From a virus, in the IMG/VR virus record IMGVR_UViG_3300005676_000004: a stretch of DNA of 64,000 nucleotides; one strand, written 5' to 3'. Below, piece by piece: positions 6,466 through 25,658 of this stretch (positions are counted from its first letter, which is position 1; each line of letters starts with the position of its first letter). The translations under genes were made by a program, and so were the position numbers. The notes beneath the pieces are model-generated. The model saw only the letters and a program-made list of their open reading frames with translations. It made no database searches and was not told where the DNA came from.

Positions 6466-6472
6466 ACATAGA

Positions 6473-6502
6473 TTTGTAAATCTCAAAAAAGTTTCGTATA
6501 TT
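6473..6502 (+). promoter_or_regulatory. Bacteroidota-type promoter (TTTG-N20-TATATT)
   Basis: TTTG at 6473-6476 and CGTATATTAG at 6495-6504, upstream of 6519. Confidence 0.7.
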
Positions 6503-6518
6503 AGTAATAAAGGTTGCG

Positions 6519-8539: not shown

Positions 8540-8553
8540 TAGGAGATAACTCA

Positions 8554-8784
8554 ATGACTGAGTCATTTAGGAAGATACCTATCACTGGATTTTTCGCTAG
8601 GCTACGAAACTCAATCCGTAAGTTATTCAGACGTCCATACTATGAGTTATATGAGGATGTTGAGACCAAAGAGCAATTTGCAATCGTCATCGGAGTTAAG
8701 GTTTCTACTCCTAGGAGTCCAAGTACGCGACAAAAGGTTCATAGAGTAAAAGATAATAATGCTGACTATACGGTAAAAAACTAA
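8554..8784 (+). CDS. Hypothetical protein
   Basis: AGGAG RBS upstream; fills the gap in the operon. Confidence 0.65.
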   Translation: MTESFRKIPITGFFARLRNSIRKLFRRPYYELYEDVETKEQFAIVIGVKVSTPRSPSTRQKVHRVKDNNADYTVKN

Positions 8785-8793
8785 TTTGGAGAT

Positions 8794-10209
8794 ATGTGCA
8801 TGGAAAATAAGAAGAGGAAGATATTATTGTTGTCTGATGATCTACGGTTGCACTCCGGTATTGCTACCGTGAGTCGTGACCTAGTTTTAGGTTCGGTTCA
8901 TAAGTATGATTGGGTTCAACTAGGCGCGGCAATTAATCACCCAGATAAAGGTAAAGTTTTTGATTTAAGTGAAGATACTGCTAAGTTGACAGGAGTTCCT
9001 GATGCAAACGTGAAGATATATGCGCATGATTCATATGGTAATCCTTTAGTATTGCGAAGTTTGTTAGATGCAGAACAGCCAGATGCTGTACTACACTTCA
9101 CCGACCCTCGTTTTTGGGACTGGTTGTATGCCATGGAGCATGAGCTTCGTGGCAAAATTCCTCTACTGTATTTGAATATTTGGGATGATTTACCCGATCC
9201 GTGGTGGAATCGACAAGCATACGCGTCATGTGACTTACTTATGGCAATATCAAAACAGACGTATGGTATCAATCAACGAGTACTTTCTAGATATGGTGAA
9301 CCTACCGACGGTCGTATAACGTATGTACCACACGGTATCAATTCCGAAATCTTTAAACCGCTATCACCCGACGATCCGGCGTATCCCGTATTTGAGACTG
9401 AAAACAATAAGTTTAGAAAAGACAACAAGGATCGTTTCATCGTCTTCTGGAACAATCGAAATTTACATAGGAAGCATCCAGGGGATGTTGTGCTTGCATA
9501 TACTGAGTTTTGTAACATGGTGAAGGCTAATGGCGGCGATCCGAGCACGGAATGCTTATTGTTTATGCACACAGCCCCTATAGACCCCAACGGTACGGAC
9601 ATTACTGCTGTCATAGATGAGTTATGTCCATACCAAGTGGCCTTTAGTACGGGAACTCTAAGTCCTCAGCAAATGAATATCCTTTATAATATTGCAGACG
9701 TTACTATCAACATAGCATCTAACGAGGGGTTTGGATTAACTACCGCCGAGTCCCTTATGGCTGGAACTCCAATCGTAGTTAATGTAACAGGCGGGTTACA
9801 AGATCAGTGTGGGTTTATAAACCCCGAAACGGGCAAATATTTTACGGAAGATGATTATGTTACAGTAGGTTCTCTGCATAGGAGAGAAGAGTGGAAGGAT
9901 GTCCTGAAAGAGAAGCATGGTGAGTGGGTTATACCAGTATGGCCATCTAATTTATCATTGCAAGGTTCTCCTCCAACTCCATATATCTTTGATGATCGGG
10001 CTTCATATCAAGAATCTGCTTCTGCACTATATGAGTGGTACAGTATGTCAAAGGAAGAACGAAAAGAGCGTGGGCTTCGTGGACGAGAGTTCATGGTTGG
10101 AGAATCAAATATGAGTAGAGATAACATGTGTAGACTTGCAATTGATAGCATTGAATCGTGTTTACAAACCTTCACGCCCCGTAGTCGTTGGGAAATGTTT
10201 CTAGTTTAA
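8794..10209 (+). CDS. Glycosyltransferase, GT-B fold (GT4-like)
   Basis: SGIATVSR and YVPHGI motifs, plus SNEGFGLTTAESLMAGTP (E-x7-E). Confidence 0.9.
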   Translation: MCMENKKRKILLLSDDLRLHSGIATVSRDLVLGSVHKYDWVQLGAAINHPDKGKVFDLSEDTAKLTGVPDANVKIYAHDSYGNPLVLRSLLDAEQPDAVLHFTDPRFWDWLYAMEHELRGKIPLLYLNIWDDLPDPWWNRQAYASCDLLMAISKQTYGINQRVLSRYGEPTDGRITYVPHGINSEIFKPLSPDDPAYPVFETENNKFRKDNKDRFIVFWNNRNLHRKHPGDVVLAYTEFCNMVKANGGDPSTECLLFMHTAPIDPNGTDITAVIDELCPYQVAFSTGTLSPQQMNILYNIADVTINIASNEGFGLTTAESLMAGTPIVVNVTGGLQDQCGFINPETGKYFTEDDYVTVGSLHRREEWKDVLKEKHGEWVIPVWPSNLSLQGSPPTPYIFDDRASYQESASALYEWYSMSKEERKERGLRGREFMVGESNMSRDNMCRLAIDSIESCLQTFTPRSRWEMFLV

Positions 10210-10213
10210 TAAT

Positions 10214-11551
10214 TTGGAAAATGATATGAGTATGACAATACATAAGCCACTTTTAGTATTCTGCGGACCAGTGCTTACACGCTCAGGCTACGGAGAACAT
10301 TCACGTGATCTATTACGATCGCTGAGAGAAATGAATAAATTTGACATTAAAATAATGTCAATAAATTGGGGAAACACACCAATGGATGCGTTGAAACCCG
10401 ACGAGAATGAATTTGATAAATGGATTCTAGATTCGATATTAACGTCGGCATTGCAATCACGTCCCGACATCTTTATGCATTGCTCAGTTCCTTCGGAGTT
10501 CAATCCGATTGGAAATTTCAACGTAGGTATAACTGCGGGTATAGAGACGGATTTATGCTCTCCGGCGTGGATAGAGGGTTGTAACAGAATGCAGTTGGTT
10601 TTAGTTCCTTCTGAACATGCAAAATCTGTCTTTATGAACAGTACATTTGCTAAATTCAACAGGAACACGCACCAGCCGGAGGGGGAGTTAGCAATAACTA
10701 CTCAAATTGAGGTTCTACCAGAAGGCGTACGCCTCGATGTATTTGATGCTAGTTTGGTTTCTGAAACTAACTTCACCACTGCATTGAACGATCGGTTGCT
10801 AACTGATTTTAATTTCTTGTTTGTCGGTCATTGGTTGCCAGGTGACTTCGGTCAAGATAGAAAAGATGTATCTGGGTTAGTAATGCAGTTTATAAAGGCG
10901 TTTTCGTCAGAAACACCTGCTTCGGATAAGCCAGGATTGATTTTGAAAACGTGTGCGGGTACATTCTCAGTTACCGATCGTGATCTAGTAATCTCAAAGA
11001 TAAACTCTATACGATCAATGGCAAATATTCCTAGAGAACAGCAACCTAACATCTATCTTCTCCACGGCGACCTTACAGAAAATCAAATGGCTGAGTTGTA
11101 TAACCACGCGAAGGTTAAAGCATTCGTTTCATTCACAAAAGGTGAGGGGTACGGACGTCCGATTGCAGAGTTCATTCCTTCAGGAAAGCCAGTACTGGTT
11201 TCAGGGTGGTCTGGACATGTTGACTTCGTAAATCCAGCATTTCATCAGTATTTGCCTGGTGAATTGACCACAATTCATCCTAGCTCAGTCTGGAAAGGCG
11301 TTATAGAGCCAGAATCAAAGTGGTTTACAGTCAATTACGAACAATCTATTGAGATTATGAAAGATTGTTATAAGAATTACAAGAAATTTTTGACTAATTC
11401 TAAGAAGTCTGTGTCACAATTCAAGTTAAAGTTCTCTTTTGAAGCTATGCACGACAAGTTTATGGCAATTTTAGACCAAAAGACACCGAAGATGCCAGAA
11501 AAAGTTACAATTCAACTGCCAAAGTTAGTCAAACGAGAGGAAGTTGTATGA
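10214..11551 (+). CDS. Glycosyltransferase, GT-B fold (GT4-like)
   Basis: TRSGYGEHSR, RKDV and KGEGYGRPIAE...GKPVLVSGWSGH. Confidence 0.9.
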   Translation: MENDMSMTIHKPLLVFCGPVLTRSGYGEHSRDLLRSLREMNKFDIKIMSINWGNTPMDALKPDENEFDKWILDSILTSALQSRPDIFMHCSVPSEFNPIGNFNVGITAGIETDLCSPAWIEGCNRMQLVLVPSEHAKSVFMNSTFAKFNRNTHQPEGELAITTQIEVLPEGVRLDVFDASLVSETNFTTALNDRLLTDFNFLFVGHWLPGDFGQDRKDVSGLVMQFIKAFSSETPASDKPGLILKTCAGTFSVTDRDLVISKINSIRSMANIPREQQPNIYLLHGDLTENQMAELYNHAKVKAFVSFTKGEGYGRPIAEFIPSGKPVLVSGWSGHVDFVNPAFHQYLPGELTTIHPSSVWKGVIEPESKWFTVNYEQSIEIMKDCYKNYKKFLTNSKKSVSQFKLKFSFEAMHDKFMAILDQKTPKMPEKVTIQLPKLVKREEVV

Positions 11552-12243
11552 AACTAGTGTATACAATAGCCGCATGTGACGAACATGAGGAGTTAACGCA
11601 ACTTTTGACGCAATTGACGAGTAAGACTCCGTTTGAGGATTATGCTATAGTCGTTGTTATTGATACTACCAAGATTAATGCACAGATGATGGCTACAGTT
11701 GCATACTTTTCAGTAAATCCGAAGATAGAGTTCGTAGATAACGCATTTAATGGAAATTTTTCAGATTTAAAAAATCTCATGAACAGTATGGCTACCAACT
11801 ACAACTGTAGATGGATTTTCAATATTGATGCTGATGAGACTCCAACTGATGAGTTTTTGCGCGATATAGAGCTTATCCTTAGTGCAGCAGATGATAGTGA
11901 CGTGGATGCAATATCAATACCTCGTGCAAATTATGTCCATGGTATAACGGACTATCACATCAATCGTTGGGGTTGGATCGTTGACACGCATGGAAGAATT
12001 AACTGGCCAGATTATCAAGTCAGATTGTATAGAAATTTACCACGATTAGTTTGGTCTGGCACCGTTCATGAGACACTTAGTGGGATAACACGACTATGGC
12101 CTCTGCCCGATAAAGAGATTCGTACTGACACCGGAGAGGCAACGACTCATCCACCTTTGTATTTCTTAAAGCATCCGAAGACAATTGAGCGGCAAGAACG
12201 GCAAAACAGTTTATATGCAGCAATGATTCACGGTACAGCGTAA
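11548..12243 (+). CDS. Glycosyltransferase family 2
   Basis: NFSDLKN, WIFNIDADE (DxD), WPDYQVRLY and VHE. Confidence 0.88.
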   Translation: MKLVYTIAACDEHEELTQLLTQLTSKTPFEDYAIVVVIDTTKINAQMMATVAYFSVNPKIEFVDNAFNGNFSDLKNLMNSMATNYNCRWIFNIDADETPTDEFLRDIELILSAADDSDVDAISIPRANYVHGITDYHINRWGWIVDTHGRINWPDYQVRLYRNLPRLVWSGTVHETLSGITRLWPLPDKEIRTDTGEATTHPPLYFLKHPKTIERQERQNSLYAAMIHGTA

Positions 12244-13217
12244 TGAAGACAGCATTTGTCTCCGAGATTCCTTACTTTGGAAAGTTCACACGTGAACATC
12301 CGAACATGCGAGTAGAATTTGCATGGATGGTTCAACACGATGCTACGCATTTTCCAATAGGCAACTATCAACAAGTTGAAGGATTTGATGAGGTATACGT
12401 CATAATTCCGAAGGGTGAACTAACCCTTAATGCAGTTGGAGCTGATTTACTTGCAGTTTATCCACCAACTGATACCAATCCCGTGAAGAAGTTTCTGGGT
12501 GAAAATATAATCCAAGTACTCAAAGGGAAGAATGTAAAGGTTTTTATAATCCAAGAAGGCCCGACTACACTTTTCAACGACTGGAGTGTTGAGACGCAAA
12601 TGCTATGGTACAGTAACGTCATGCAAAGCGACGGTATCTGTTGCCATAATACAAGTGATGTACCTTTTTATGAAGGGCTTTTCAAGGGATTAATCCCAGT
12701 GACTGTTAAGAAGACAGTAATGATTGATACTCTCCTTAAGAAACTTCAACCCGTTGACACCACTGATACCGTTATCATAGGTGGAAATTTCTCCCGATGG
12801 TACGGCGGATTTCAGAGTTGGATAGTTGCATCTGAACTGGTTGATGATTTGAATACGGCAGCATTTGTTCAGACTTCTCACTCTACACGGTTTTCTGAAA
12901 ATTTATACTTGAATGTGTTACCACGAATGTCGTGGATTGACTGGATGGATAGACTACGCCAGTTTAAGTATGCCGTACACCTTATGCCGACAGTTGCTGC
13001 TGGAACGTTTAATTTGAACTGCGCATACTGGGGTATACCATGTATAGGTAATAAGAAAGTTGACACCCAGAGGGAGTGCTTCCCTCTCCTATCCGTTGAT
13101 CCAGAAGATGTTCTATCGGCAAGTATATTAGCGCAACGTCTCAGGAACGAGAAAGAATTTTATACTCAAGTATCCGAACATGCCAAGCGCATTGCTCGTG
13201 AAAAATTTTTAATGTAA
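12243..13217 (+). CDS. Putative glycosyltransferase (GT-B-like)
   Basis: C-terminal AAGTFNLNCAYWGIPCIG resembles a GT-B nucleotide-binding motif; lies inside the GT cluster. Confidence 0.65.
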   Translation: MKTAFVSEIPYFGKFTREHPNMRVEFAWMVQHDATHFPIGNYQQVEGFDEVYVIIPKGELTLNAVGADLLAVYPPTDTNPVKKFLGENIIQVLKGKNVKVFIIQEGPTTLFNDWSVETQMLWYSNVMQSDGICCHNTSDVPFYEGLFKGLIPVTVKKTVMIDTLLKKLQPVDTTDTVIIGGNFSRWYGGFQSWIVASELVDDLNTAAFVQTSHSTRFSENLYLNVLPRMSWIDWMDRLRQFKYAVHLMPTVAAGTFNLNCAYWGIPCIGNKKVDTQRECFPLLSVDPEDVLSASILAQRLRNEKEFYTQVSEHAKRIAREKFLM

Positions 13218-13220
13218 ACT

Positions 13221-14885
13221 ATGAAGAATAAGTTTCGTATTATAACTCCATCGTATAATAATGCGTTGTGGCTAGAGTACAACGTTGCATCTGTACTCAA
13301 TCAGACCTATGCAAATTGGGAATGGATATACATTGACGACTGCTCAACTGATGGTACGTATGATCTAGTTAAGAGCCTTGTTGATGACCCTAGGGTTACT
13401 ATTATCCGTAACGAGACTAATCTAGGCGCAATGTGGAACTACTTTGAGATAGGTCTCAGAGACATTGAGGATGATACTATAGTTGTTCATTTAGATGGTG
13501 ATGACTGGCTATTTGACATTCATGTCCTAGAACGACTCAATGATTACTACAACCAACACGATGTATGGATGACATATGGAAAGATGTACGTGTGGCGTGG
13601 GGCGGATTCCACCGTTGAAGAATCCACACCTCAGAATAGTCCTGCGCCCGAAATTGTAATGCAACGTCGTTCGTTTAGAGAAGACATTTGGCGGTACTCT
13701 CATCTACGCACATATAGAGCATTTCTATTGAAAGCTATTAATAAAGATGATATGATTGATCCAGTTACGAATGAGTTCTATTGGGAAGCAAGTGATCTAT
13801 CGTTTCAGTATCCATGTCTAGAGATGTCGGCTCCCGATAAGATAGGGTGTGTTGACTTTCCAACTTACGTATACAATGCGAATCCGCTTCAAACATCTAG
13901 GACATCAACTCGACAGCATTCATCTAGACATTGGGAGATTGAACAGTCTATCCGAGGCAAGAAGAGATACAGTAAGGGTATTGGCCTCGGTAAATTACCG
14001 CAAGTTAATATTCATGGCTATCAATACGATAGCGACACGATACCAACAAAATTTAGTATTGTCTACAACGCTACTACTAACACTGAATATGATGTAACGG
14101 TGTTCACTGATTTTGATATACCAAAGTATATTAATAATCCTTCTCTAGTTGGTGGACTGGTGATTGCAGACTTACATGAGACGCGAGAGTTTTCGGAAGA
14201 CCTTAATCGAATTTATGATCTAGTGTATGACAACTACTCTCTGTTTGATTGCATTATAACACACGACGAAAAGTTGTTAACGTTGCCGAATGCTAAACTA
14301 CGATTTATAGCATGGCGAACGCACCTGTATCGGTACGACGTAAATAAGCCAGTTATTCGTGACCCAATGGAAGGGCTGTATTGTTACCCAAAGTCACGGC
14401 AAGTATCTTGTGTGTCTTCAAATAAGGCATTTCTCCCCGGACATCATAAACGTCTAGAGTTCGTACATTGGATGCGCCATAATGCTCCGCACGTTGATAT
14501 GTATGGTCGCGGGTTCAACGCGGTAGAGCAGAAGCTCGATGCTTTGCGTGATTATCGTTTCTCGGTTGTTATAGAGAATGCAGTTAGACCTAACTGGATA
14601 ACTGAGAAGGTGACGGACTGTTTTATTACGGGCACGATACCGATCTATTATGGTGCTCCGAATATAGGGGATTACTTTGATTCAAACGGAATATTACAGT
14701 TTGCAACTGTTGAAGAACTCCAGCAAATTTTGCAGATGATTGAAACATCTGGAGAAGAGTTATATAGAGACAAAATTGAATCGGTTATGGAAAATTTTAA
14801 GCACGGGTTACATTATACGCTAACACTTGACAAGTGGTTTGATGTATACATTCGGCCTATTATATGTGGAGGTAAGCGTGGGTAA
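13221..14885 (+). CDS. Bifunctional glycosyltransferase: N-terminal GT2 + C-terminal GT10 (alpha-1,3-fucosyltransferase)-like domain
   Basis: IITPSYN, YIDDCSTDGT and HLDGDDW; C-terminal YRFSVVIENAVRPNWITEKVTDCFITGTIPIYYG. Confidence 0.85.
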   Translation: MKNKFRIITPSYNNALWLEYNVASVLNQTYANWEWIYIDDCSTDGTYDLVKSLVDDPRVTIIRNETNLGAMWNYFEIGLRDIEDDTIVVHLDGDDWLFDIHVLERLNDYYNQHDVWMTYGKMYVWRGADSTVEESTPQNSPAPEIVMQRRSFREDIWRYSHLRTYRAFLLKAINKDDMIDPVTNEFYWEASDLSFQYPCLEMSAPDKIGCVDFPTYVYNANPLQTSRTSTRQHSSRHWEIEQSIRGKKRYSKGIGLGKLPQVNIHGYQYDSDTIPTKFSIVYNATTNTEYDVTVFTDFDIPKYINNPSLVGGLVIADLHETREFSEDLNRIYDLVYDNYSLFDCIITHDEKLLTLPNAKLRFIAWRTHLYRYDVNKPVIRDPMEGLYCYPKSRQVSCVSSNKAFLPGHHKRLEFVHWMRHNAPHVDMYGRGFNAVEQKLDALRDYRFSVVIENAVRPNWITEKVTDCFITGTIPIYYGAPNIGDYFDSNGILQFATVEELQQILQMIETSGEELYRDKIESVMENFKHGLHYTLTLDKWFDVYIRPIICGGKRG

Positions 14886-15852
14886 GAGGGCACTGATCAC
14901 TGGTATAAACGGTCAAGATGGATCATATCTATCGGAGTTTTTACTTGAAAAAGGTTATGAAGTTCACGGTATACTGAAGCGAAATTCTGTATCCGAGAAT
15001 CAGACAGCTAGGCTGAACGATAATGTATTTGCAGATGTTCGCCTTCATTATGGTGACATGCTTGATATACCATCAATCATCGCGGCTATTAAGAAGAGTA
15101 AGCCAGATGAAATATACAATCTAGCGGCGCAATCACACGTTAGGATTTCATTTGATCAGCCGATCTATACAGCCATGGCTACTGGTTTAGGTGCGTTGAA
15201 TCTACTTGAATCTCTGATTTCAACTGATTACGCTGACTCTAAGGTGTATCAAGCAAGCTCATCGGAGATGTTTGGTAACTCTATTGATGCAGACATGTAT
15301 CAGCGAGAAACTACTCCAATGTATCCAGTGTCTCCGTATGGTTGCTCTAAGTTATTTGCCTATAACATCTCTCGCAACTACAGAAATTCTTACGGCATGT
15401 TCATATCAAATGGGATACTATTCAATCATGAGTCACCACGCCGTGGAACTAACTTCGTTACAAATAAGGTTGTGAAGGAAGCGGTTAAAATTTCTAAAGG
15501 ACTTTCGGATAAAGTTGTGTTAGGTAATTTACATGCACAGCGCGATTGGGGACACGCTAAAGACTACGTTAGGGCAATGTGGGAAATCTTACAGTTAGAC
15601 CAACCGGATGACTTCGTATGTGCAACTGGAATAACGCACACGGTTCAATATCTGTGTGAATATACGTTCTCATCATTGGGATTGGACTGGCGGGAATTTG
15701 TCAAAACTGACGCTGTATATCAACGACCAGAAGAACTTCATGCGCTTCGCGGTGATGCTACCAAACTGAAGATTAAGACTGGATGGTCGCCCGAATACAC
15801 GTTTGAAACAATGTTAGATGAAATGATTGATTATTGGAAAGGTGTATTATGA
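14878..15852 (+). CDS. gmd: GDP-mannose 4,6-dehydratase
   Basis: GTG start. ALITGINGQDGSYL, YNLAAQSHV, YQASSSEMFG, SPYGCSK and RDWGHAKDYV. Confidence 0.97.
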   Translation: MGKRALITGINGQDGSYLSEFLLEKGYEVHGILKRNSVSENQTARLNDNVFADVRLHYGDMLDIPSIIAAIKKSKPDEIYNLAAQSHVRISFDQPIYTAMATGLGALNLLESLISTDYADSKVYQASSSEMFGNSIDADMYQRETTPMYPVSPYGCSKLFAYNISRNYRNSYGMFISNGILFNHESPRRGTNFVTNKVVKEAVKISKGLSDKVVLGNLHAQRDWGHAKDYVRAMWEILQLDQPDDFVCATGITHTVQYLCEYTFSSLGLDWREFVKTDAVYQRPEELHALRGDATKLKIKTGWSPEYTFETMLDEMIDYWKGVL

Positions 15853-16763
15853 GAGTATTAGTAACAGGCGGCAGTGGTCTCGTCGGTAAACATCTAGCCG
15901 AGCATGAGCCAACTTGGAACTACTTATCTTCGTTTGACGGAGACCTCCGAGATCGAAATACTGTGTGGGACATCTTTGAATTTTACCAACCGGATGCAGT
16001 TATACATCTAGCGGCGAAAGTTGGTGGTATCCAATCAAATAGCAGCCAACCGATGGACTACTTCACCGATAATGTTCTCATAAACACGAACGTAGTTCAA
16101 ACTGCCTTAGACTTTGGAGTTAGAAAGTTTGTAGGACTCATCTCATCATGCGCATACACCGACGTATCCCCGTCGTATCCTCTTCAGGAGAATCAGTTAT
16201 TTGAGGGTGAGCCGCACATGTTAAACTATGGATATGGTATGGCAAAACGTATGTTAGCTGCGCAGATAAAGATTGCTCGGCAACATCTAGGTAAAAATTT
16301 TTCATATCTCATTCCGTCAAATTTGTACGGGTTGTATGAGACTGGCGATATTAGTGTCAAGCATTTCGTCGGTGCTCTCATGGATAAGATCATACGTGCC
16401 GAGGAAGGCGACGGCATCGTAACATTATTTGGTGACGGAACACCGTTACGCCAGTTTACGTATGCGGAGGATGTTGCTAACATATTGCGGCGTGTAATTG
16501 AACAAGATGTCTCTGAGAATTTAAACGTTTCTATTGATGAAAACTTAACAATAGATCAGATAGCTAGGATAGCTGTATCCGTGAGTGATAATCCAAACCT
16601 AACTATTCAATACGATTCCAGTAAACCCAACGGGCAGTATCGCAAGGACATTGATACTACATTACTTAAGAAAGTATTTGGAGATTTCAAATTTACTCCG
16701 TATATTGAAGGTCTTAGAAAGACTTACAGATTTTACAAAAACAAATCACGTGATGAAAATTAA
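15849..16763 (+). CDS. fcl: GDP-L-fucose synthase (epimerase/reductase)
   Basis: VLVTGGSGLVG, HLAAKVGGI, SSCAY, YGYGMAKR, PSNLYG and GDGTPLRQF. Confidence 0.93.
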   Translation: MRVLVTGGSGLVGKHLAEHEPTWNYLSSFDGDLRDRNTVWDIFEFYQPDAVIHLAAKVGGIQSNSSQPMDYFTDNVLINTNVVQTALDFGVRKFVGLISSCAYTDVSPSYPLQENQLFEGEPHMLNYGYGMAKRMLAAQIKIARQHLGKNFSYLIPSNLYGLYETGDISVKHFVGALMDKIIRAEEGDGIVTLFGDGTPLRQFTYAEDVANILRRVIEQDVSENLNVSIDENLTIDQIARIAVSVSDNPNLTIQYDSSKPNGQYRKDIDTTLLKKVFGDFKFTPYIEGLRKTYRFYKNKSRDEN

Positions 16764-16780
16764 CATAGAGGAATCGCTGC

Positions 16781-18130
16781 ATGGATAATAAGGGTGAAAT
16801 TCTTAATCTAGTTGAACAGTACATTAACACAAAGAACTCCCAGAAGTCATGGACTCCTGGGGAAGATTGGGTTCAATATTCAGGACCATATTTCAATGCA
16901 GAAGAGTATGTCGCTGCGGTTGATACGTTATTAAACGGGTGGTTTATTCTAGGTGAGAAGGGTAGAGAATTTGAAAATAAATTTTCTAAAATGTTAGGTA
17001 AGCAAGATGGTGTCTTTGTTAACTCGGGAAGTTCAGCTAACTTACTGATGGTGTCTATGCTACGCACACGACGTGGTGGCAACTTACCAGTGGGTAGTAA
17101 ATTTATTACCCCAGTAGTGTGCTTTCCGACCACGATAAATCCACTCATTCAGAATGGATTTAAGCCTGTCTTCGTTGATGTTGAACTCCCAAACCTAAAT
17201 CTTAACTTAGATCATGTTGAGAAACTTTTGGAGGAAGATACTGAGAAGGAGATTAAAGGTATCATATTTGCACATGTGCTCGGTAACCCCCCTGACATGG
17301 ACAGACTGATGTCTATTGTTGAGAAGTATAATTTGATCTATCTTGAAGACACGTGCGATGCTTTAGGTTCAAAGTGGGATGGTAAGCCGCTAGGTTCGTT
17401 CGGTAAACTTTCAACATGTTCATTCTTTCCTGCGCACCACATGACGACGGGGGAAGGTGGGTTCGTAGCTTGTAACTTACCTATGCACCGAATGGCGTTA
17501 GCGTCTCTTCGAGATTGGGGACGTGGGTGCTATTGCAATACAAAGAAGCCTGGTAACGTTATTGACGGAACTGCATGTGGTATGCGTCTGAACTCTTGGT
17601 TTAAAGATTATCCAGAGATTCAATACGACCATCGATATGTCTTTGAGGAAATTGGCTATAATCTCAAGCCAACCGAGATGCAAGCTGCGATGGGATTGGT
17701 TCAGATCACTAAACTTGATGAGATGCACGAGAGACGAAAACATAATTTTGCTAGAATGTATTCTATATTCGAACAATACTCTGAGTTCTTCCATCTGCCA
17801 TATTCTCTTGAGAAGGCAGACACGAGTTGGTTTGGATTTCTGCTGACACTTAAAGACGGTTGCCCATTTGATAAGAGTGAAATTGTTGACCATCTAGAGA
17901 GTGCAAAAATTCAAACTAGGTCGTACTTCACTGGCAATGCGTTGTTTCATCCAGCATATTCAACCATGTTCAAAGAACAGTATCCAGACCCAAAGAATCA
18001 GTTTCCAGTAGCCACTAAGACTACAAAGGATACATTCTTCACTGGTGTGTATCCTGGCATTACGGACGACCAGCTTGATTACATAAAAGTTGTAGTTGAC
18101 AACTTTATGTCAAAGTATACAGCGAAGTGA
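16781..18130 (+). CDS. rfbH: NDP-4-keto-6-deoxyglucose 3-dehydratase (RfbH/DdhC/E1, PMP- and 2Fe-2S-dependent)
   Basis: NSGSSANLL; SFFPAHHMTTGEGG with His in place of the PLP Lys; RDWGRGCYC...AC and YDHRY Fe-S ligand pattern. Confidence 0.9.
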   Translation: MDNKGEILNLVEQYINTKNSQKSWTPGEDWVQYSGPYFNAEEYVAAVDTLLNGWFILGEKGREFENKFSKMLGKQDGVFVNSGSSANLLMVSMLRTRRGGNLPVGSKFITPVVCFPTTINPLIQNGFKPVFVDVELPNLNLNLDHVEKLLEEDTEKEIKGIIFAHVLGNPPDMDRLMSIVEKYNLIYLEDTCDALGSKWDGKPLGSFGKLSTCSFFPAHHMTTGEGGFVACNLPMHRMALASLRDWGRGCYCNTKKPGNVIDGTACGMRLNSWFKDYPEIQYDHRYVFEEIGYNLKPTEMQAAMGLVQITKLDEMHERRKHNFARMYSIFEQYSEFFHLPYSLEKADTSWFGFLLTLKDGCPFDKSEIVDHLESAKIQTRSYFTGNALFHPAYSTMFKEQYPDPKNQFPVATKTTKDTFFTGVYPGITDDQLDYIKVVVDNFMSKYTAK

Positions 18131-18139
18131 TAGATTACT

Positions 18140-18991
18140 ATGCAATACGTTTCCTTCCAATCTCTAGGAGAGATAGGTAACATGTGTTCTCAGATGCAAC
18201 AGTTTGCATCATTATGTGCTGTTGCATCTGAGACTGGTCATGAGATACGTTTACCAGAATCGTCAAAAAGTCGTGGGTTCGGAATACGAATGTTTGATCT
18301 TCTTGACGTAGAACCTCAATATGAGCCGGATGAGTTCTTTCAGGGCTTTAAGCGTTTCAGACTTAACGAGAAGACACGCGTTGACGATAGAGTCTTTGGG
18401 TTAGATAGTAGCTATTCGTATTTCGTTGACGGGAGATTTGATCTCTTTACGTATTGGTACCCTAAACATGCTCAGCATGTTCTTGGATGGAATATACGCC
18501 CACAATTTGTAGAGAAGGCAAACGAGTTCATTCGGCGAGTTAAAGACTCGTATGAAACTAACGTAAGAGTGGTTGCAATGCATATACGTTTGGGTGACTA
18601 CCTTTTACCAGAGCATCACCATTTCGTTAGATTATGGCAGACTGATTACTACACCAAGGCGATGCAAGTAATAACGGAAAAGCATGAACATGTTAAATTC
18701 CTGATATTCAGCAACGACATTAAATGGTGTCGAGAGAATTTACTCCCCGACTCTTCAGATGAAGACTTTGTAGATACTAAAGATGACTGCTTAGATTTTG
18801 CAATAATGGCTAGCTGTGACGACATTATCATAGCGAATAGTTCGTTTAGCCTATGGGCTGCATTTATGAATAAGAATCCTGATAAGACTATAGTATGTCC
18901 GACGCAGTACTTGTATGAGTATAGTGAGTTTTCCCATATCAATGGTAACTACTATCCTAACGATTGGACGTCAATTAATATGGAGTTATGA
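18140..18991 (+). CDS. Glycosyltransferase family 11 (alpha-1,2-fucosyltransferase-like)
   Basis: GNMCSQ, HIRLGDY, FSNDIKWC and IIANSSFSLWAA. Confidence 0.9.
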   Translation: MQYVSFQSLGEIGNMCSQMQQFASLCAVASETGHEIRLPESSKSRGFGIRMFDLLDVEPQYEPDEFFQGFKRFRLNEKTRVDDRVFGLDSSYSYFVDGRFDLFTYWYPKHAQHVLGWNIRPQFVEKANEFIRRVKDSYETNVRVVAMHIRLGDYLLPEHHHFVRLWQTDYYTKAMQVITEKHEHVKFLIFSNDIKWCRENLLPDSSDEDFVDTKDDCLDFAIMASCDDIIIANSSFSLWAAFMNKNPDKTIVCPTQYLYEYSEFSHINGNYYPNDWTSINMEL

Positions 18992-19980
18992 TTATGGTAG
19001 ATACGAAGATAGTATATGTCACAGGCTGTGCTGGATTTATCGGGTGCACGGTGGCAGAATTATGCCTCAATATGGGATGGTATGTTATTGGTGTTGATAA
19101 GATGACATACGCGTCATCGAATGATGCGGTTAAATATCTACAGCAGTTAGGTGAAGATAGATTTAAGATGCTAACGTGTGACATCAACGACCTAACGTTT
19201 CTGTACGATTGTGATTACATCATCAATTGTGCTGCTGAGACACACGTTGGAAATTCGATAGTAAATTCTGATGAGTTTATTCATTCAAATGTCCGAGGTG
19301 TTCATCACTTGTTAAAATTGCTTCGAGAGTATAGGCAAGAAAACGGCAAGACGCCAACACTACTTCATTTTAGTACTGATGAAGTGTATGGTGATATTCA
19401 GTCTGGATTCCACACTGAATCTGATATGCTTCGACCTTCAAATCCATACTCTGCAACGAAGGCTGCCGCTGATATGCTTATATTGGCTTGGAGTAGAACA
19501 TACGGAATTCCATACGTAATTGTTCGCCCGACAAACAACTATGGGATCGGTCAATATGCTGAGAAGCTAATTCCGAAAGCGGTAAAGTATCTTGGGCTAG
19601 GTAGGAAGATTCCTCTACATAACGGGGGGTCTCCCGTGCGGAGTTGGTTGCACGTGTATGACACTGGAGCTGCAATAATTGAGATAATACTGAATGGTGT
19701 TGTGAACGAAATTTTCAACATATCGGGTGGATTTGAACAGACTAATGAAGAGACTGTTCGTAAAATAATATCATGTTGGAATGACATTCACCGAGACAAT
19801 CCCGATATGATAGTTGAATATGAGTCGGTTGTCGATCTTGGAATACATCGCGAAGGCCAAGATGTTCGATATGCTCTTGATGACTCAAAACTACGTTCTC
19901 TAGGGTGGACCCCAGTCGTTAACTTTGACGACACTATTGGAAGTATAGTGGAATACTACAGTAACAAATTTTTGTGGTAA
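18988..19980 (+). CDS. rfbB: dTDP-glucose 4,6-dehydratase-like SDR
   Basis: VTGCAGFIG, DKMTYA, AAETHV, STDEVYG, PYSATKAA, NNYG and RSWLHV.D. Confidence 0.9.
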   Translation: MIMVDTKIVYVTGCAGFIGCTVAELCLNMGWYVIGVDKMTYASSNDAVKYLQQLGEDRFKMLTCDINDLTFLYDCDYIINCAAETHVGNSIVNSDEFIHSNVRGVHHLLKLLREYRQENGKTPTLLHFSTDEVYGDIQSGFHTESDMLRPSNPYSATKAAADMLILAWSRTYGIPYVIVRPTNNYGIGQYAEKLIPKAVKYLGLGRKIPLHNGGSPVRSWLHVYDTGAAIIEIILNGVVNEIFNISGGFEQTNEETVRKIISCWNDIHRDNPDMIVEYESVVDLGIHREGQDVRYALDDSKLRSLGWTPVVNFDDTIGSIVEYYSNKFLW

Positions 19981-19987
19981 TACGAAA

Positions 19988-20209
19988 ATGAAATCACTAA
20001 CAGATAATACTCCGTTTAGCGGTAGAGCTATCTCATTAACGTTGCGAGTTGAGTTTCTTGATGAGTATATCAAGGAAGATGAGCTACACGTTGAAGTTAT
20101 AGGAGACTCTAGAATTGAACGTGTAAAACTTAATGCAGAGACATTTAAAGGTCGCTCCATTGGTGACGTCATCAATGAGTTGATACAACAACTTAATATT
20201 CGAGCTTAA
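19988..20209 (+). CDS. Hypothetical protein
   Basis: 73 aa; stop overlaps the next start. Confidence 0.55.
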   Translation: MKSLTDNTPFSGRAISLTLRVEFLDEYIKEDELHVEVIGDSRIERVKLNAETFKGRSIGDVINELIQQLNIRA

Positions 20210-22179
20210 TGACGAAAGGTAATAAGATGACAGTCGCAGAAGCAATATTCGCGTTCCTTAAAGGTGCTGGCTTTGAAATTGGATTCACAGTTACGGGTGG
20301 TGGCGCGATGTTCCTTAATGAAGCACATCGAAAATCACAACTCTTGTCGGTACACCATCATCATGAACAAGCTGCGGCAATGGCTGCTGTTGGCTATTCA
20401 AAGTCTACACGGAAGCCGTCATTTGTAGTGTGTACAAGTGGGTGTGGATCAACTAATACGTTGACTGGGGTTCTTGATGCGTATCAAGATGGCGTTCCTG
20501 TCTTGTTTTTATCTGGAAATGCTAACGAACAGCAGTTAACAGAGACCCATATTAAAAACTACCCAACTATGCGAAAGTTAGGAGTTCAAGAAAATGATAT
20601 TAGACCGCTCGTCTTTTCCATTACTAAATGTGCATACACCATTACTTCCGCAGATGTTGGGGGAGAATATCTCGTTGAATTATTACAAATGTCCGTACGC
20701 TCCATGTTTCAGGGTAACCCTGGACCAGTTTGGATAGACGTCCCGTTAAATGTGCAGTCGTTACAAGTTGATACATCAATATTTCCAGAAGGAGATGATC
20801 GCTTCAATAGAGCTGGATTAATGACTAGAGACTCTTGCAATGATGTCAACAGAAGGATATTCAGCAAAGTTCCAGCGCAAAAATTACTTAACGCTATAGA
20901 CAAGATAACGAAATCGAAGAGACCGTTATTTCTAATTGGCAACGGCGCATATCAATGGCTTGAGTCCGCGCCATACAATGAAACTCATTTGAATCCAATT
21001 CCTAAAGTGTTTACGTATTTAACTGCTGGATATAGACGATTGCATGATCCAGATACACCCGGTCTAGGGGTCGTTGGTATAAAGGGAAATCGCGCTGCCA
21101 ACTATGCAATGCAACATTGTGATCTTCTAATAGTATTGGGTTGTTCATTATCTACTCCAGTTACTGGATATGACTTAAGTAAATGGATTCCAAACGCATC
21201 TCTTCTGGTAGTTGATGTCGACGACACCGGAACAAGTAAATATGTTTTCGATAAATGGGTTTCTGACAATATTTCCAACGGTAGAAAACCTGGTAGTGAT
21301 TTTCATGCTGATTTTTTGAGGCAAGATGTTAGTGCATTCATGGATGCCTTGCGTTGCTTTGTGCATCCAGAATTAGAGTTTAATTGGTCTCCGTGGAGAA
21401 AGTGGTGTCACGCGCTTGCACGTGAAATGCATATTGAAAGTGAACCACACACCCCAGAAGACGACGATGATTCAGCTTTGAACATCTATACGTTTTTAAA
21501 TTGGCTGAGTAATACAGTAAACGAAAGAACAGATGGTAAAATAACAACCATAGTATCGGATGCGGGCAGCGCATACTACACAGTTTCACAGGCGTTTGAC
21601 TTCGGCCCATGTACACGATATGTAACATCTGGTGCACAAGCCGATATGGGGTTTGCTATCCCCGCAGCAATCGGCGTCCAAGTCAGGCATTGGCCGAAAA
21701 GTAACGTACACCATACCATGGCTATAACTGGGGATGGGTCAATGCTTACAAATGTCCAAGAGCTTACAGTAGCTGGTGGTATGAATTTACCAATAAAATT
21801 TATTATACTAGATAACAATGGGTATCTATCCATACGAAACACTATGGACAAATTCTTTAATTCAAAATATTTCGGAACTGATTGTAACTCTGGACTAGCA
21901 TTGCCTACTGATTTTAAGTCCATAGCAGACATGGCGTCTCTTGCATATTACGAGGTCAATTTAGAAAATCTGTTTGACGAAGATACACGGCAGATTTTTT
22001 TGAATAATACTCCAGCACTTATAAGAGTACGTTGTCTGCAACAACAAGATATAATACCAACCGTAGCCTCGCGCACTATGGAGAACGGTGAAGTTGTATC
22101 TCAACCACTAGAAAATATGTATCCGTTCCTAGATACTATGCCGTCAATGTATGTACCACAAATTCCATCAAATGTTTAA
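20209..22179 (+). CDS. ThDP-dependent acetolactate-synthase-like enzyme (YerE-like by context)
   Basis: HHEQAAAMAA, TSGCGSTN, SGNAN, GPVWIDVP.NVQ, and ThDP motif GDGS...DNNGY. Confidence 0.9.
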   Translation: MTKGNKMTVAEAIFAFLKGAGFEIGFTVTGGGAMFLNEAHRKSQLLSVHHHHEQAAAMAAVGYSKSTRKPSFVVCTSGCGSTNTLTGVLDAYQDGVPVLFLSGNANEQQLTETHIKNYPTMRKLGVQENDIRPLVFSITKCAYTITSADVGGEYLVELLQMSVRSMFQGNPGPVWIDVPLNVQSLQVDTSIFPEGDDRFNRAGLMTRDSCNDVNRRIFSKVPAQKLLNAIDKITKSKRPLFLIGNGAYQWLESAPYNETHLNPIPKVFTYLTAGYRRLHDPDTPGLGVVGIKGNRAANYAMQHCDLLIVLGCSLSTPVTGYDLSKWIPNASLLVVDVDDTGTSKYVFDKWVSDNISNGRKPGSDFHADFLRQDVSAFMDALRCFVHPELEFNWSPWRKWCHALAREMHIESEPHTPEDDDDSALNIYTFLNWLSNTVNERTDGKITTIVSDAGSAYYTVSQAFDFGPCTRYVTSGAQADMGFAIPAAIGVQVRHWPKSNVHHTMAITGDGSMLTNVQELTVAGGMNLPIKFIILDNNGYLSIRNTMDKFFNSKYFGTDCNSGLALPTDFKSIADMASLAYYEVNLENLFDEDTRQIFLNNTPALIRVRCLQQQDIIPTVASRTMENGEVVSQPLENMYPFLDTMPSMYVPQIPSNV

Positions 22180-22192
22180 GGATAACAAAATC

Positions 22193-23215
22193 ATGGGAAA
22201 CTCAGAAATTAGAATTCAAGATGGTAGAACACATTTTGATGTTCAGAAACAAGTAAAGAAGAAGAAAACAATCACTGAGCTTCGTGAGATGCGACGTAAC
22301 GCTAGACCTATAACATGGATAACTGCGTACTCGTATCCAACTGCAACGGTTGCCGAGAGAGCAGACATTGATATGATCCTCGTTGGAGACTCAGGTGGAA
22401 TGGTTGAGCTAGGGTACAAGAGCACAAATCCAGTTACTATGGATGAGATGATTAGTATGTGTAAAGCCGTACGACGCGGCGCACCTAAAACATTTGTAGT
22501 CGGAGATATGCCTCAGGGGTCGTATGAGATTTCCGATGAAGATGCCGTTACAAACGCTCTTAGATTTATTAAAGAAGGTGATTGTGACGCTGTTAAATTG
22601 GAAGGCGGTGAGAGAGTTGCATCTCGTGTAAAGGCAATCCACAATGCTGGAATAATTGTTGTTGGACACTTGGGGCTAACTCCGCAGTCTGCACAATCAT
22701 TTGGGGGTTATCGAGTACAAGGACGGACAGTTGATGAGGTAAAGCAAATTAGACGCGATATGCGTTCACTTGAAGATAGCGGGGCAAGTATCATTCTCAT
22801 TGAAGCTACTCCATCTGCATGTGGTGTATATCTTTCGTTAGCAGCTCGTCCCGATACGATCGTCATGGGGATTGGGGCTGGTAGGGGGGTTCATGGGCAA
22901 CTAGCAATTTTTCATGATGTTGTTGGATTTTATCCAGACTTTAAACCGAAATTTATAAAGTCATTTATTCCCGACGTTATTGGACATTTCAATGATTGCG
23001 TAAAGATGGCTGAAAATACTAGGTTAGTTAATGATGCAGTAATTCCTGGGTTTGACGGTGTTTTGATGTTAACAACTTTAGCTGTTCGCGAATATGGCAA
23101 CCAAGTACGAAACAAGGCATTTCCATCTAATGAATACATCTATTCAAACAACGATGCCAATGAGGAAAGTATTATGGAACTGTGTAATCAGTTACCTGTG
23201 GCTCTACGTCTATGA
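22193..23215 (+). CDS. panB: Ketopantoate hydroxymethyltransferase-like protein
   Basis: ITAYSYP, ILVGDS, VGDMP, VKLEGG, GHLGLTPQS and IGAG; AAGGA RBS before ATG 22193. Confidence 0.9.
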   Translation: MGNSEIRIQDGRTHFDVQKQVKKKKTITELREMRRNARPITWITAYSYPTATVAERADIDMILVGDSGGMVELGYKSTNPVTMDEMISMCKAVRRGAPKTFVVGDMPQGSYEISDEDAVTNALRFIKEGDCDAVKLEGGERVASRVKAIHNAGIIVVGHLGLTPQSAQSFGGYRVQGRTVDEVKQIRRDMRSLEDSGASIILIEATPSACGVYLSLAARPDTIVMGIGAGRGVHGQLAIFHDVVGFYPDFKPKFIKSFIPDVIGHFNDCVKMAENTRLVNDAVIPGFDGVLMLTTLAVREYGNQVRNKAFPSNEYIYSNNDANEESIMELCNQLPVALRL

Positions 23216-24159
23216 TAATCGTAACTGGTGTGCGTGGCTACCTCGGTTCTCTTGTCTACGAGAAGCTAAAAAAAGATGGAAAACATACCGTTGTTGGTAT
23301 AAGTAGACAAGATGTTGACTTAGAAGACAATTACGAGGTATTGAAATTCTTTACAGCTCAAAATGACATTGAGAGAATTGAAACAGTGATTCACTGTGCA
23401 TCTGCTGGTAACTCCGTAACACCAACAGATGACTTCTCAATTATTCCAGCAAATGTTAAGATGATGCAAAACATTTTATCTTCTATAGACACATCTAATG
23501 TTAGATTCATCTTACCATCTTCTGGAGCTATGAGAAATCGGAGTTTCGCATTTCACATTGATGTGGAAGAATACTTACGTGTTCCAACTGATGCCTATGG
23601 GTTATCAAAATATTTGTGTTGGCAAATGGCAGTCAATTTACCGAATTTTCTAGGTATTGTTATCTATGGTTTGTTCGGGGACACCGAACCAGAGTATAGG
23701 TTCTTTAAGTCAGTTATAACAAACGCACTACGGGGCGATCCTATCTATGTTTATGACGCAACTAGCATTATGGACTTTGAGTATACACCGAATCTTGTAA
23801 ATTTTATAAGTGATGTTGCGGTTGATAATAGTTGGCAGGGAAAAGTTGAGGTATTCCGACCTGAGAGAGATTCTCTGTATGGACATGCCATTTGTATATC
23901 TGAAAAATGTTACGCATACAAACAGAAACTCATCAATAGCGGCGTATTAATAGAATCTAACCCATACTATGCTACTGGCGTAAGTTCTGTGAACTTCAGT
24001 GACAAATATAAACCGAAATTCAAGTCGTCGTATATTGCACAACGTAATGTATCTTTGCGTAACAGTATGTTAGGTGGGGCGAAACTTTTATCACTTGAAG
24101 AAGGAATTGATGAGATGATATGTAAACTTGCACCAACCATACTAGGAGTAGAAATATGA
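23212..24159 (+). CDS. NAD-dependent epimerase/dehydratase/reductase (extended SDR)
   Basis: IVTGVRGYLG, HCAS, SSGA, YGLSK (YxxxK) and YGLFG. Confidence 0.85.
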   Translation: MIIVTGVRGYLGSLVYEKLKKDGKHTVVGISRQDVDLEDNYEVLKFFTAQNDIERIETVIHCASAGNSVTPTDDFSIIPANVKMMQNILSSIDTSNVRFILPSSGAMRNRSFAFHIDVEEYLRVPTDAYGLSKYLCWQMAVNLPNFLGIVIYGLFGDTEPEYRFFKSVITNALRGDPIYVYDATSIMDFEYTPNLVNFISDVAVDNSWQGKVEVFRPERDSLYGHAICISEKCYAYKQKLINSGVLIESNPYYATGVSSVNFSDKYKPKFKSSYIAQRNVSLRNSMLGGAKLLSLEEGIDEMICKLAPTILGVEI

Positions 24160-25658
24160 TTCAACCTATAAGTTTTTGTATACCAGTAACTGATACCGAA
24201 ATTGAGTATCTTGAGTTGCTTTTAACTTCGTTGGAGAAATCAACGAAGGCAGATATGCATGAAGTAATTGTCTTCGTTGATTCAGTCCATCCAGACCCTA
24301 TTGTAGATATGTTGCGACAACGGAAGAACCTATTTTCGTCGTTTGTAATCATGACTCTAGGTAGTAGTATTCCCCATGCAATTGGATTGCAACAAAATAT
24401 GTCATTAATGGTGGATGACTGCAAAAATAGTATCTTCTGCCATCTACAATCAGATATGGTAGCTTCGCCTGGAATTGATGAAGTAATAACTAGATATTTG
24501 TATGAAGGAGAAGATACGTCAACACCTCATCTGAATAGAGTGGTGTCTCTTACACGGATAGAACCACCATTGCATCCACCAAGCCCCGAAAAGATAACTC
24601 ACGACTTTGGGAAAAATCCATCTGAGTTTAATAATTTGGGATGGGATTCCTTTGTGTCATTCGTTGATAATACTAAAGTTGCTAAGATAGCCAAAGAAGG
24701 GAAGAAGGAACTACTTGATCAATTTTTCTCTCCATTTGCGATGTTTAAGCAATCATACATTGACGTCGGGGGTTTCGATACTATATTCTTATGCTCACGG
24801 GAAGATTCTGACTTCATAGTTCGGCTTCATTCCCTTAACTATGAGCTAATACAGCCACTAGAGGCAATGGTGTATCATTTTACATGTGTTGCTTCGCGAG
24901 GAGTGAATTGGTTTGATAACGAGAGTGAAGACAACCCGTCTAACCCATCAAGCATATACCAGTGGGCAGATATGGCGGAGGTTCGTCGTTTTATTCGAAA
25001 ATGGGGAACATTTGCTCATAATATTGAATACACATCATTTTCACAGTTGCGTATTATACTTGATTCCGACGTAACTCCTATGGTGATTGACGCCCTCCTA
25101 GATATAGAGCCGTATTTCTACAATATTCAGATAGAAGGCCCACACTCTCAGTTCTTAGCACATTTTCTTAACGCTACATGTCAATTTAATTCGGAGTACT
25201 ATACTGCTCAAAAGAGAAAGAGAGACGTGAATTTGGGGTTCTATTATGGTTTTAGATTCAATAGTGTTTATCCTAACGTAGAACATAAACGTTTACCCCT
25301 TCTAAATTCAGAGTTGACGTTACCAGTTTCTGTATTGAAGAAGGTTATTAGTAGTAATCATATACGAGATTTTTATGAATCTGTCGGCACACTCCATTTA
25401 TTACCGAAGACGCATGAGCCTGGAGTATATGACATACAGATAGTTCCGAACTCTAAGATACCAAGTGTGCAATTGAATATTTTATCAACTGAAAATAGAA
25501 TTCCTTTTATCGTAAATCGTGATCGCGATACGGTATACGATGGAATTGGTAGTATATTCAATACTGTAATTCGAAGATATGAAAAAGATCATACACTGTC
25601 GGAATCATCAGAAGAATATGCAAATGTTATAGTTTCTTCGGCATATAACGACTGTTAG
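24156..25658 (+). CDS. Glycosyltransferase family 2 with C-terminal extension
   Basis: ISFCIP, CHLQSDM, RIEPPLHP, GGFDTIF..SREDSD and VYHFTC. Confidence 0.85.
   Translation: MIQPISFCIPVTDTEIEYLELLLTSLEKSTKADMHEVIVFVDSVHPDPIVDMLRQRKNLFSSFVIMTLGSSIPHAIGLQQNMSLMVDDCKNSIFCHLQSDMVASPGIDEVITRYLYEGEDTSTPHLNRVVSLTRIEPPLHPPSPEKITHDFGKNPSEFNNLGWDSFVSFVDNTKVAKIAKEGKKELLDQFFSPFAMFKQSYIDVGGFDTIFLCSREDSDFIVRLHSLNYELIQPLEAMVYHFTCVASRGVNWFDNESEDNPSNPSSIYQWADMAEVRRFIRKWGTFAHNIEYTSFSQLRIILDSDVTPMVIDALLDIEPYFYNIQIEGPHSQFLAHFLNATCQFNSEYYTAQKRKRDVNLGFYYGFRFNSVYPNVEHKRLPLLNSELTLPVSVLKKVISSNHIRDFYESVGTLHLLPKTHEPGVYDIQIVPNSKIPSVQLNILSTENRIPFIVNRDRDTVYDGIGSIFNTVIRRYEKDHTLSESSEEYANVIVSSAYNDC

Follow-up and report, generated by a model that had tools for sequence, protein, structure and literature searches.

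The window analyzed here is a 64,000-nucleotide stretch of viral DNA from an IMG/VR virus record (IMGVR_UViG_3300005676_000004) of 253,401 bp, for which the CheckV completeness estimate is 100%. We describe in it a run of genes at positions 16781-25658 that is predicted to direct the synthesis of a branched deoxysugar and that includes a PanB-family hydroxymethyltransferase. The replication genes of this phage are T4-like, with a family B DNA polymerase and a gp44-type clamp loader.

Five enzyme genes had been named in an original prediction made from the letters alone, and all five are found within 16781-24159, on the + strand. The first (16781-18130) encodes a predicted E1/RfbH-type 3-dehydratase of nucleoside diphosphate (NDP)-4-keto-6-deoxyhexoses, dependent on pyridoxamine phosphate and a [2Fe-2S] cluster. 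It is followed by an RmlB-like NDP-hexose 4,6-dehydratase of the deoxythymidine diphosphate (dTDP)-glucose type (18988-19980), a YerE-like carboligase dependent on thiamine diphosphate (ThDP) and considered a candidate C-branching enzyme (20209-22179), a PanB-family 2-oxo-acid hydroxymethyltransferase (22193-23215, with an alternative start at 22151) and an extended short-chain dehydrogenase/reductase (SDR; 23212-24159; PF01370) whose start overlaps the PanB stop. A GT2-like glycosyltransferase (GT) of 500 aa comes next, at 24156-25658, also on the + strand.

Neighboring genes overlap or sit at most 17 nt apart all along 16781-25658. The five genes had been described as a tightly coupled run, and the coupling indeed holds throughout; however, a fucosyltransferase-like GT11 gene (18140-18991, + strand; PF01531, E 4e-27) lies between the E1 and dehydratase genes, and what looked like a 228-nt gap upstream of the ThDP gene contains an unlisted open reading frame (ORF) of 73 aa without assigned function (19988-20209, + strand). 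The run can be considered coupled throughout because this ORF fills the apparent gap and its stop overlaps the ATG of the ThDP gene (TAATG). At other loci the immediate neighbor of the ThDP gene is the dehydratase or some other gene; homologs of the 73-aa ORF were not searched. A scan of the run for sigma-70 promoters and terminators returned no more sites than in shuffled sequence.

The E1 and 4,6-dehydratase genes

The E1 product scores 440 bits with the E1/RfbH model NF011936, above the cut-off of 423, and aligns over its full length with Yersinia E1 (PDB 3BCX), at 316 bits versus 170 for ColD. The His-for-Lys exchange and the Fe-S cysteine motif announced in the prediction are both recovered: His219 aligns with His220 of the Yersinia enzyme, replacing the usual Lys, and all four [2Fe-2S] cysteines (C193, C251, C253 and C261 in Yersinia E1) are kept, with a longer last spacer. 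We also considered a ColD/colitose reading, in which E1 would act with the guanosine diphosphate (GDP)-mannose 4,6-dehydratase (GMD) and GDP-fucose-synthase-like (GFS-like) genes found upstream. This reading was dropped, as the Fe-S E1 is far nearer and the four cysteines are kept.

The GxxGxxG, TDE and YxxxK motifs are readable in the RmlB-like dehydratase, which homology assigns to the NDP-hexose 4,6-dehydratase class. Model TIGR01181 gives 285 bits, below its cut-off of 365, versus 74 bits for the cytidine diphosphate (CDP)-type model, and the top ten PDB matches are all dTDP-glucose 4,6-dehydratases. Judging from these relatives the nucleotide carrier is most likely dTDP, in agreement with the earlier suggestion of dTDP rather than CDP.

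The ThDP enzyme and PanB across viral loci

The third enzyme matches all three ThDP domains (PF02776, PF00205 and PF02775), and the catalytic Glu53 and a GDG...NN motif (GDGS...NNGY) are present in the alignment. A family profile built from five members scores JanthE (8RPH) at 500 bits and PpYerE (5AHK) at 354, versus 300 or less for acetohydroxyacid synthases (AHAS); with the window sequence alone, the corresponding values are 208, 162 and at most 141 bits. Rooting the tree on E. coli IlvI places the viral ThDP family behind a branch of length 3.09 (100% support in the Shimodaira-Hasegawa-like approximate likelihood ratio test, SH-aLRT). Across 401 Pseudomonadota genomes, profile scores are bimodal, with 21 genomes at 447-597 bits and the remainder, corresponding to AHAS, at 382 or less. 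The prediction had asked where this ALS-like protein belongs: its family goes with YerE-like enzymes, apart from IlvI. The enzyme is thus a predicted YerE-like carboligase, of a family much nearer to JanthE and PpYerE than to acetolactate synthases.

In several phage loci the ThDP gene appears as two adjacent ORFs (L002:10001-11841, with about 361 and 251 aa; L074-L076; L079-L084). The enzyme may be genuinely split there, or the two ORFs may result from a frameshift.

A profile-guided scan of IMG/VR yielded 68 viral loci with this ThDP family, whose synteny was mapped by tblastn and by clustering of 1,437 ORFs. PanB is found beside the ThDP gene in 38 of the 68, which answers the co-localization search proposed in the prediction. 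Together with the window, these form a set of 39 PanB-bearing loci (29 distinct PanB and 32 distinct ThDP sequences), and identities among their sequences go down to about 34-40%. The gene order ThDP, PanB, SDR, with a gap of -26 to +30 nt between the first two, is observed in 36 of the 39. Most PanB loci also contain E1 and an RmlB-like gene, in one of two arrangements: E1 ... RmlB-ThDP-PanB-SDR or ThDP-PanB-SDR-E1-RmlB. Since E1 and the dehydratase can lie on either side of it, the ThDP-PanB-SDR triad survives rearrangement. The window E1 shares 51-64% identity with its counterpart in most cassette loci, and a homolog of the dehydratase (55-66% identity) occurs in about 30 loci, either just before the ThDP gene or a few genes after it. 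The TGxxGxxG motif, Ser104 and Tyr129-x3-Lys133 are kept across 29 cassette SDRs, and from these motifs the SDR is probably a branch ketoreductase with a YerF-like role.

PanB-linked ThDP enzymes all fall in one clade (40 rows, SH-aLRT 97), which includes the window enzyme. Mapped on the ThDP tree, the PanB label requires 7 changes versus a mean of 20.6 after shuffling, a value matched in 0 of 500 shuffles. No PanB is found in any of the other ThDP clades, among which are contigs of giant-virus metagenome-assembled genomes (MAGs). In eight loci of these PanB-less clades, the ThDP gene is adjoined by an HMGL-family protein, for which the best NCBIfam match is 4-hydroxy-2-oxovalerate aldolase (82 bits, below cut-off). 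The run itself contains no pyruvate aldolase; PanB is in that place.

Some PanB-less loci have a gene content of their own. In L051, L062-L064 and L069 (around positions 9000-13800), the HMGL-type aldolase lies upstream of the ThDP gene, and a 459-aa protein with a PurF-like phosphoribosyltransferase domain lies downstream, accompanied in some by a HAD phosphatase. This arrangement suggests a further, different branched-sugar variant.

The prediction had presented the gene combination as one without a described phage counterpart. The combination is not rare, the cassette being widespread in uncultured large phages. Against GenBank phages, a megablast search with the run gave no match, and tblastn with PanB and the ThDP enzyme returned housekeeping panB and ilvB only, in contaminated or bacterial 'phage' records.

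The PanB of the run exceeds the cut-offs of both TIGR00222 (235 versus 207) and NF001452 (283 versus 272). Residues D45, S46, D84, K112, E114, H136 and E181 (E. coli numbering), which cover every Mg, carboxylate (2-oxo-acid) and base position, are intact in all 29 cassette PanBs. These sequences also share a seven-residue signature, G83 D109 A125 I126 L212 I214 F225, present in 29/29 (28/29 at position 125). The signature sets them apart from canonical PanBs, the comparison that had been called for: it is absent from 16 of 17, namely from five reference records (E. coli and Listeria-, Staphylococcus-, Microcystis- and Acinetobacter-associated records, two of them beside panC) and from 11 of 12 Pseudomonadota PanBs. 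Within the cassette lineage we distinguish two sublineages. The first (n=18) is phage-only, keeps Leu47 and has no insertion; in the second (n=11, including the window), residue 47 is Gly or Ala and about 16-29 aa are inserted (27-29 in ten members). The window PanB has Gly in place of Leu47 and an insertion of about 29 aa.

The signature is common to all 123 closest database proteins, including bacterial P0066 (Algoriphagus) and P0068, and one of the 123 lies on a 6.5-Mb contig. On a bacterial metagenome contig, L016, a signature-type PanB paralog (9747-10640) has an IclR regulator on one side and an octopine-dehydrogenase-like gene on the other. Its flanks (5219-16362) encode a glycine-betaine ABC transporter, two MttB-family methyltransferases and an MFS transporter, and the locus may serve folate-linked quaternary-amine catabolism. 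A Pseudomonadota PanB-like paralog (L099, G028:C1:959486-963193) has a partial signature (LGDALILF), with D84 changed to C and E114 to Q. We found no cassette-type PanB in the 401 Pseudomonadota genomes, and no PanB within 1.5 kb of the YerE-like gene at any of the 21 Pseudomonadota YerE-like loci.

We rejected the idea that PanB and the ThDP enzyme are a phosphoenolpyruvate (PEP) mutase/phosphonopyruvate decarboxylase pair, since the E-value is 1.7e-85 for PanB versus 6e-4 for PEP_mutase.

Viral panB and ilvB genes have so far been interpreted in terms of host metabolism. In an Eastern Tropical North Pacific marine virome, viral panB is reported as the most abundant 'vitamin' auxiliary gene and is read as boosting coenzyme A (CoA), the viral 'pantoate transferase' being taken as a vitamin B5 auxiliary gene (PMC8940887); viral ilvB has been filed under the valine and pantothenate pathways (PMC8226683). 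By the same reasoning, the two genes of the run could be independent auxiliary genes, PanB raising host pantothenate and CoA and the ThDP enzyme acting as an acetolactate synthase for branched-chain amino acids, and a PanB above the equivalog cut-off with an intact active site is what such a role would call for. We consider this very improbable. Domain searches across the whole 253-kb record detect no PanC, ApbA/PanE, KARI_N or ILVD, while the same method recovers PanB; the absence of panC, panE and ilvC already noticed within the window thus extends to the entire phage. Lacking PanC and PanE, the phage cannot take the PanB product on to pantothenate with its own genes, and the lineage signature of its PanB differs from the canonical one. 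Furthermore, the ThDP protein groups with YerE-like enzymes rather than AHAS, and in 29 distinct cassettes PanB keeps its place between the genes for the ThDP enzyme and the SDR, with E1 and a 4,6-dehydratase alongside.

Predicted pathway and alternatives

It is likely that the run specifies a branched-sugar pathway to which PanB is functionally tied. As to its product, we favor, with some reserve, an acyl-branched (C4-branched) 3,6-dideoxyhexose of the yersiniose/erwiniose kind, with PanB replacing a pyruvate aldolase. A YerE-type route to a branched 3,6-dideoxysugar was the central claim of the prediction, and it is well supported by the proximity of the ThDP enzyme to JanthE and PpYerE and by the co-occurrence of E1, dehydratase and SDR in dozens of loci.

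The pathway may be hypothesized as follows. The RmlB-like enzyme would convert host NDP-glucose, most likely dTDP-glucose, to NDP-4-keto-6-deoxyglucose, from which the Fe-S E1 would remove the 3-OH to give an NDP-4-keto-3,6-dideoxyhexose. PanB, with methylene-tetrahydrofolate (methylene-THF), would hydroxymethylate a host 2-oxo acid into a gamma-hydroxy-2-oxo acid: either ketopantoate (4-hydroxy-3,3-dimethyl-2-oxobutanoate) from 2-oxoisovalerate, or 4-hydroxy-2-oxobutanoate from pyruvate. By analogy with ErwE of the erwiniose pathway, the YerE-like enzyme would then decarboxylate this hydroxy acid and add the acyl anion to C4 of the keto-sugar. The SDR would reduce the side-chain ketone, and the GT2-like enzyme or another glycosyltransferase of the island would pass the sugar to its acceptor.

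Several components would be borrowed from the host. The whole record contains no NTP_transferase (nucleotidyltransferase) domain, and no Fer2 or NAD_binding_1 domain, hence no E3 (AscD-type) reductase. As no E3 is encoded, electrons for E1 would come from a host ferredoxin/flavodoxin system and, given the missing phage genes, the pathway must start from host NDP-glucose, 2-oxo acids, methylene-THF and reductants.

That PanB makes the donor keto acid before coupling is the best-supported form of the original proposal of a hydroxymethylated 2-oxo-acid donor, given the linkage in 36 of 39 loci, the intact residues and the aldolase in PanB-less relatives. It is also the simplest reading, since viral loci show either an aldolase with the ThDP enzyme or the ThDP enzyme with PanB, and a PanB product is a 4-hydroxy-2-oxo acid. 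Drawn by analogy, this donor-supply role is an inference, not a demonstration, to which we give a little better than an even chance. We may also hypothesize that tailoring occurs after coupling: the ThDP enzyme would add a pyruvate-derived acetyl group, as YerE does, PanB would hydroxymethylate this acetyl branch and the SDR would then reduce it. Such a course of events would fit the gene order ThDP-PanB-SDR, and seven fixed PanB substitutions near the active site, together with the Leu47 to Gly change and 29-aa insertion in the window's sublineage, could enlarge the pocket. However, PanB keeps all residues binding the carboxylate/keto group through Mg, 18 cassette PanBs retain Leu47 and lack the insertion, and both the aldolase-bearing sister loci and the published results on ErwI and ErwE (PMC9306805) favor donor synthesis before coupling. 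Post-coupling tailoring thus appears unlikely.

The surroundings of the run bear on the nucleotide carrier. It belongs to a glycosylation island (8794-25658) whose genes are all on the same strand. Immediately upstream of E1 lie the GMD (14827-15852, + strand; TIGR01472, 381 bits; PF16363, E 9e-115), 64% identical to that of the related locus L001, and the GFS-like SDR (15834-16763, + strand; NF047922, 160 bits, below the cut-off of 500; PF01370 match). The same branching chemistry might therefore take place on a GDP-linked sugar, with GMD feeding GDP-4-keto-6-deoxymannose to E1 and the RmlB-like enzyme serving another sugar; in L001, GMD is the only 4,6-dehydratase beside E1, ThDP and SDR genes. 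We find this quite unlikely. E1 resembles the CDP-type Fe-S E1 far more than the GDP-specific ColD. In most PanB loci the RmlB-like gene either immediately precedes the ThDP gene or adjoins E1 on the downstream side of the triad, and GMD is missing from most of these loci. In addition, GMD, GFS, GT10 and GT11 together would form a self-sufficient fucose arm, and we consider GMD and the GFS-like SDR a probable GDP-fucose arm of the same glycan island. L001 (IMGVR_UViG_3300025736_000018) is a phage contig whose frames are open only with TGA read as Trp (code 4); it contains E1, GFS, GMD, GT10, ThDP, SDR and GT2-like genes, with no PanB and no RmlB.

The 500-aa protein encoded at 24156-25658 has no Pfam match and was placed by the ESM Atlas with viral GT2 clusters (features 0.98, structure template-modeling (TM) score 0.69). 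GT2-like homologs come after the SDR in L001 and L051 too, and from this model-based placement the protein is a candidate transferase for the branched sugar. The island part 8794-16763 encodes a GT4, a GT-B-like protein of 445 aa (Atlas TM 0.94 to viral GT1/GT4 clusters), a GT2 and a fused GT2+GT10, followed by GMD and the GFS-like gene. Overall, the island contains at least seven glycosyltransferase domains, and homologs of the GT4 and of the 445-aa protein travel with the cassette in about 20 other phage loci. Outside the island, a large secreted protein of 1467 aa (32346-36749) combines an IgGFc-binding-like domain, Ig-like repeats and a weak C-terminal Por_Secre_tail domain of the type IX secretion system (24 bits, below cut-off). 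This last domain is the sole hint of a Bacteroidota host.

Several observations weigh against the proposed pathway with PanB as donor enzyme. The window ThDP enzyme is the most divergent member of its family, with a terminal branch of 2.02 and several insertions, and its activity could differ on account of this very long branch and the insertions; our trees come from 'quick' searches and have long branches. Some members of the PanB-linked clade are without PanB (L001, L002, L041, L082, L083 and the alphaproteobacterial MAG loci L003/L004), and the signature PanB lineage is not exclusive to sugar cassettes, since the non-sugar L016 locus has one. The carrier is uncertain, L001 having GMD only and L002 being without any dehydratase, and neither an E3 nor a ferredoxin is encoded by the phage. 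Finally, the pathway role of every cassette enzyme is a prediction from sequence, which does not tell in what order PanB and the ThDP enzyme would act.

More tentatively, we may envision a new sugar, a dTDP-3,6-dideoxyhexose with a PanB-derived C4 branch such as 1,3-dihydroxy-2,2-dimethylpropyl, put on virion or host-surface glycans by soluble phage glycosyltransferases; viral 'panB' and 'ilvB' in viromes would then largely be markers of this pathway. A full-text literature search found no paper linking YerE-type enzymes with PanB in a cluster; the search did not extend to a survey, cited in PMC12247030, that takes in more than 200 YerE-like clusters. If our interpretation is correct, the side chain of branched bacterial and viral sugars can be formed by a new route, through a folate-dependent hydroxymethyltransferase and not an aldolase; a new monosaccharide is predicted, and a recurrent annotation error for viral panB and ilvB would be corrected.

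Comparison with known systems

The phage PanB shares with canonical PanBs (E. coli 1M3U, M. tuberculosis 1OY0) the fold family and the catalytic and Mg-binding residues. It differs in belonging to a separate lineage with seven fixed substitutions, to which the window's sublineage adds G47 and the insertion of about 29 aa, and in being embedded in a sugar cassette with no panC or panE partner.

JanthE, from Janthinobacterium sp. HH01, and PpYerE are the relatives with a solved structure that come closest to the phage ThDP family. Identity is only about 30%; the window protein has GDG where JanthE has CDG, and it contains extra insertions. The donors that JanthE takes include bulky and 4-hydroxy 2-oxo acids, and its acceptors include ketones (PMC12188165). 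ThDP enzymes of this kind are sought after as catalysts for tertiary alcohols.

With the yersiniose A pathway of Yersinia pseudotuberculosis (E1/E3, YerE, YerF), the phage run has in common an Fe-S E1 with His for Lys, a ThDP C4-branching enzyme and a side-chain reductase. Unlike the phage, the Yersinia pathway is CDP-linked with a dedicated E3, and its YerE uses pyruvate and needs no donor-forming enzyme.

The closest parallel is with the erwiniose cluster of Pectobacterium atrosepticum, in which a BphI-like pyruvate aldolase, ErwI (ErwI aldolase/ErwJ), lies beside the ThDP enzyme ErwE and is accompanied by the reductase ErwF (Steitz et al. 2022, PMC9306805). Pyruvate is not accepted by ErwE, whose preferred substrates are 4-hydroxy-2-oxo acids, and a 'unifying scheme' proceeding from aldolase to ThDP enzyme to reductase has been extended to caryophyllose and gastriose (PMC9306805). 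Both systems would use an E1-type 4-keto-3,6-dideoxy NDP-hexose, a clustered enzyme making a hydroxylated 2-oxo acid, YerE-like coupling and an NAD(P)H reductase, and in viral relatives that lack PanB, an HMGL-type aldolase often even adjoins the ThDP gene. The phage system differs in being phage-borne, in its dTDP-type rather than CDP-type dehydratase, in having no E3 or nucleotidyltransferase and, above all, in its donor enzyme, a methylene-THF-dependent PanB in place of a pyruvate aldolase. Because of this replacement, the predicted branch would differ from the erwiniose type: it would be hydroxymethyl-derived and possibly gem-dimethyl.

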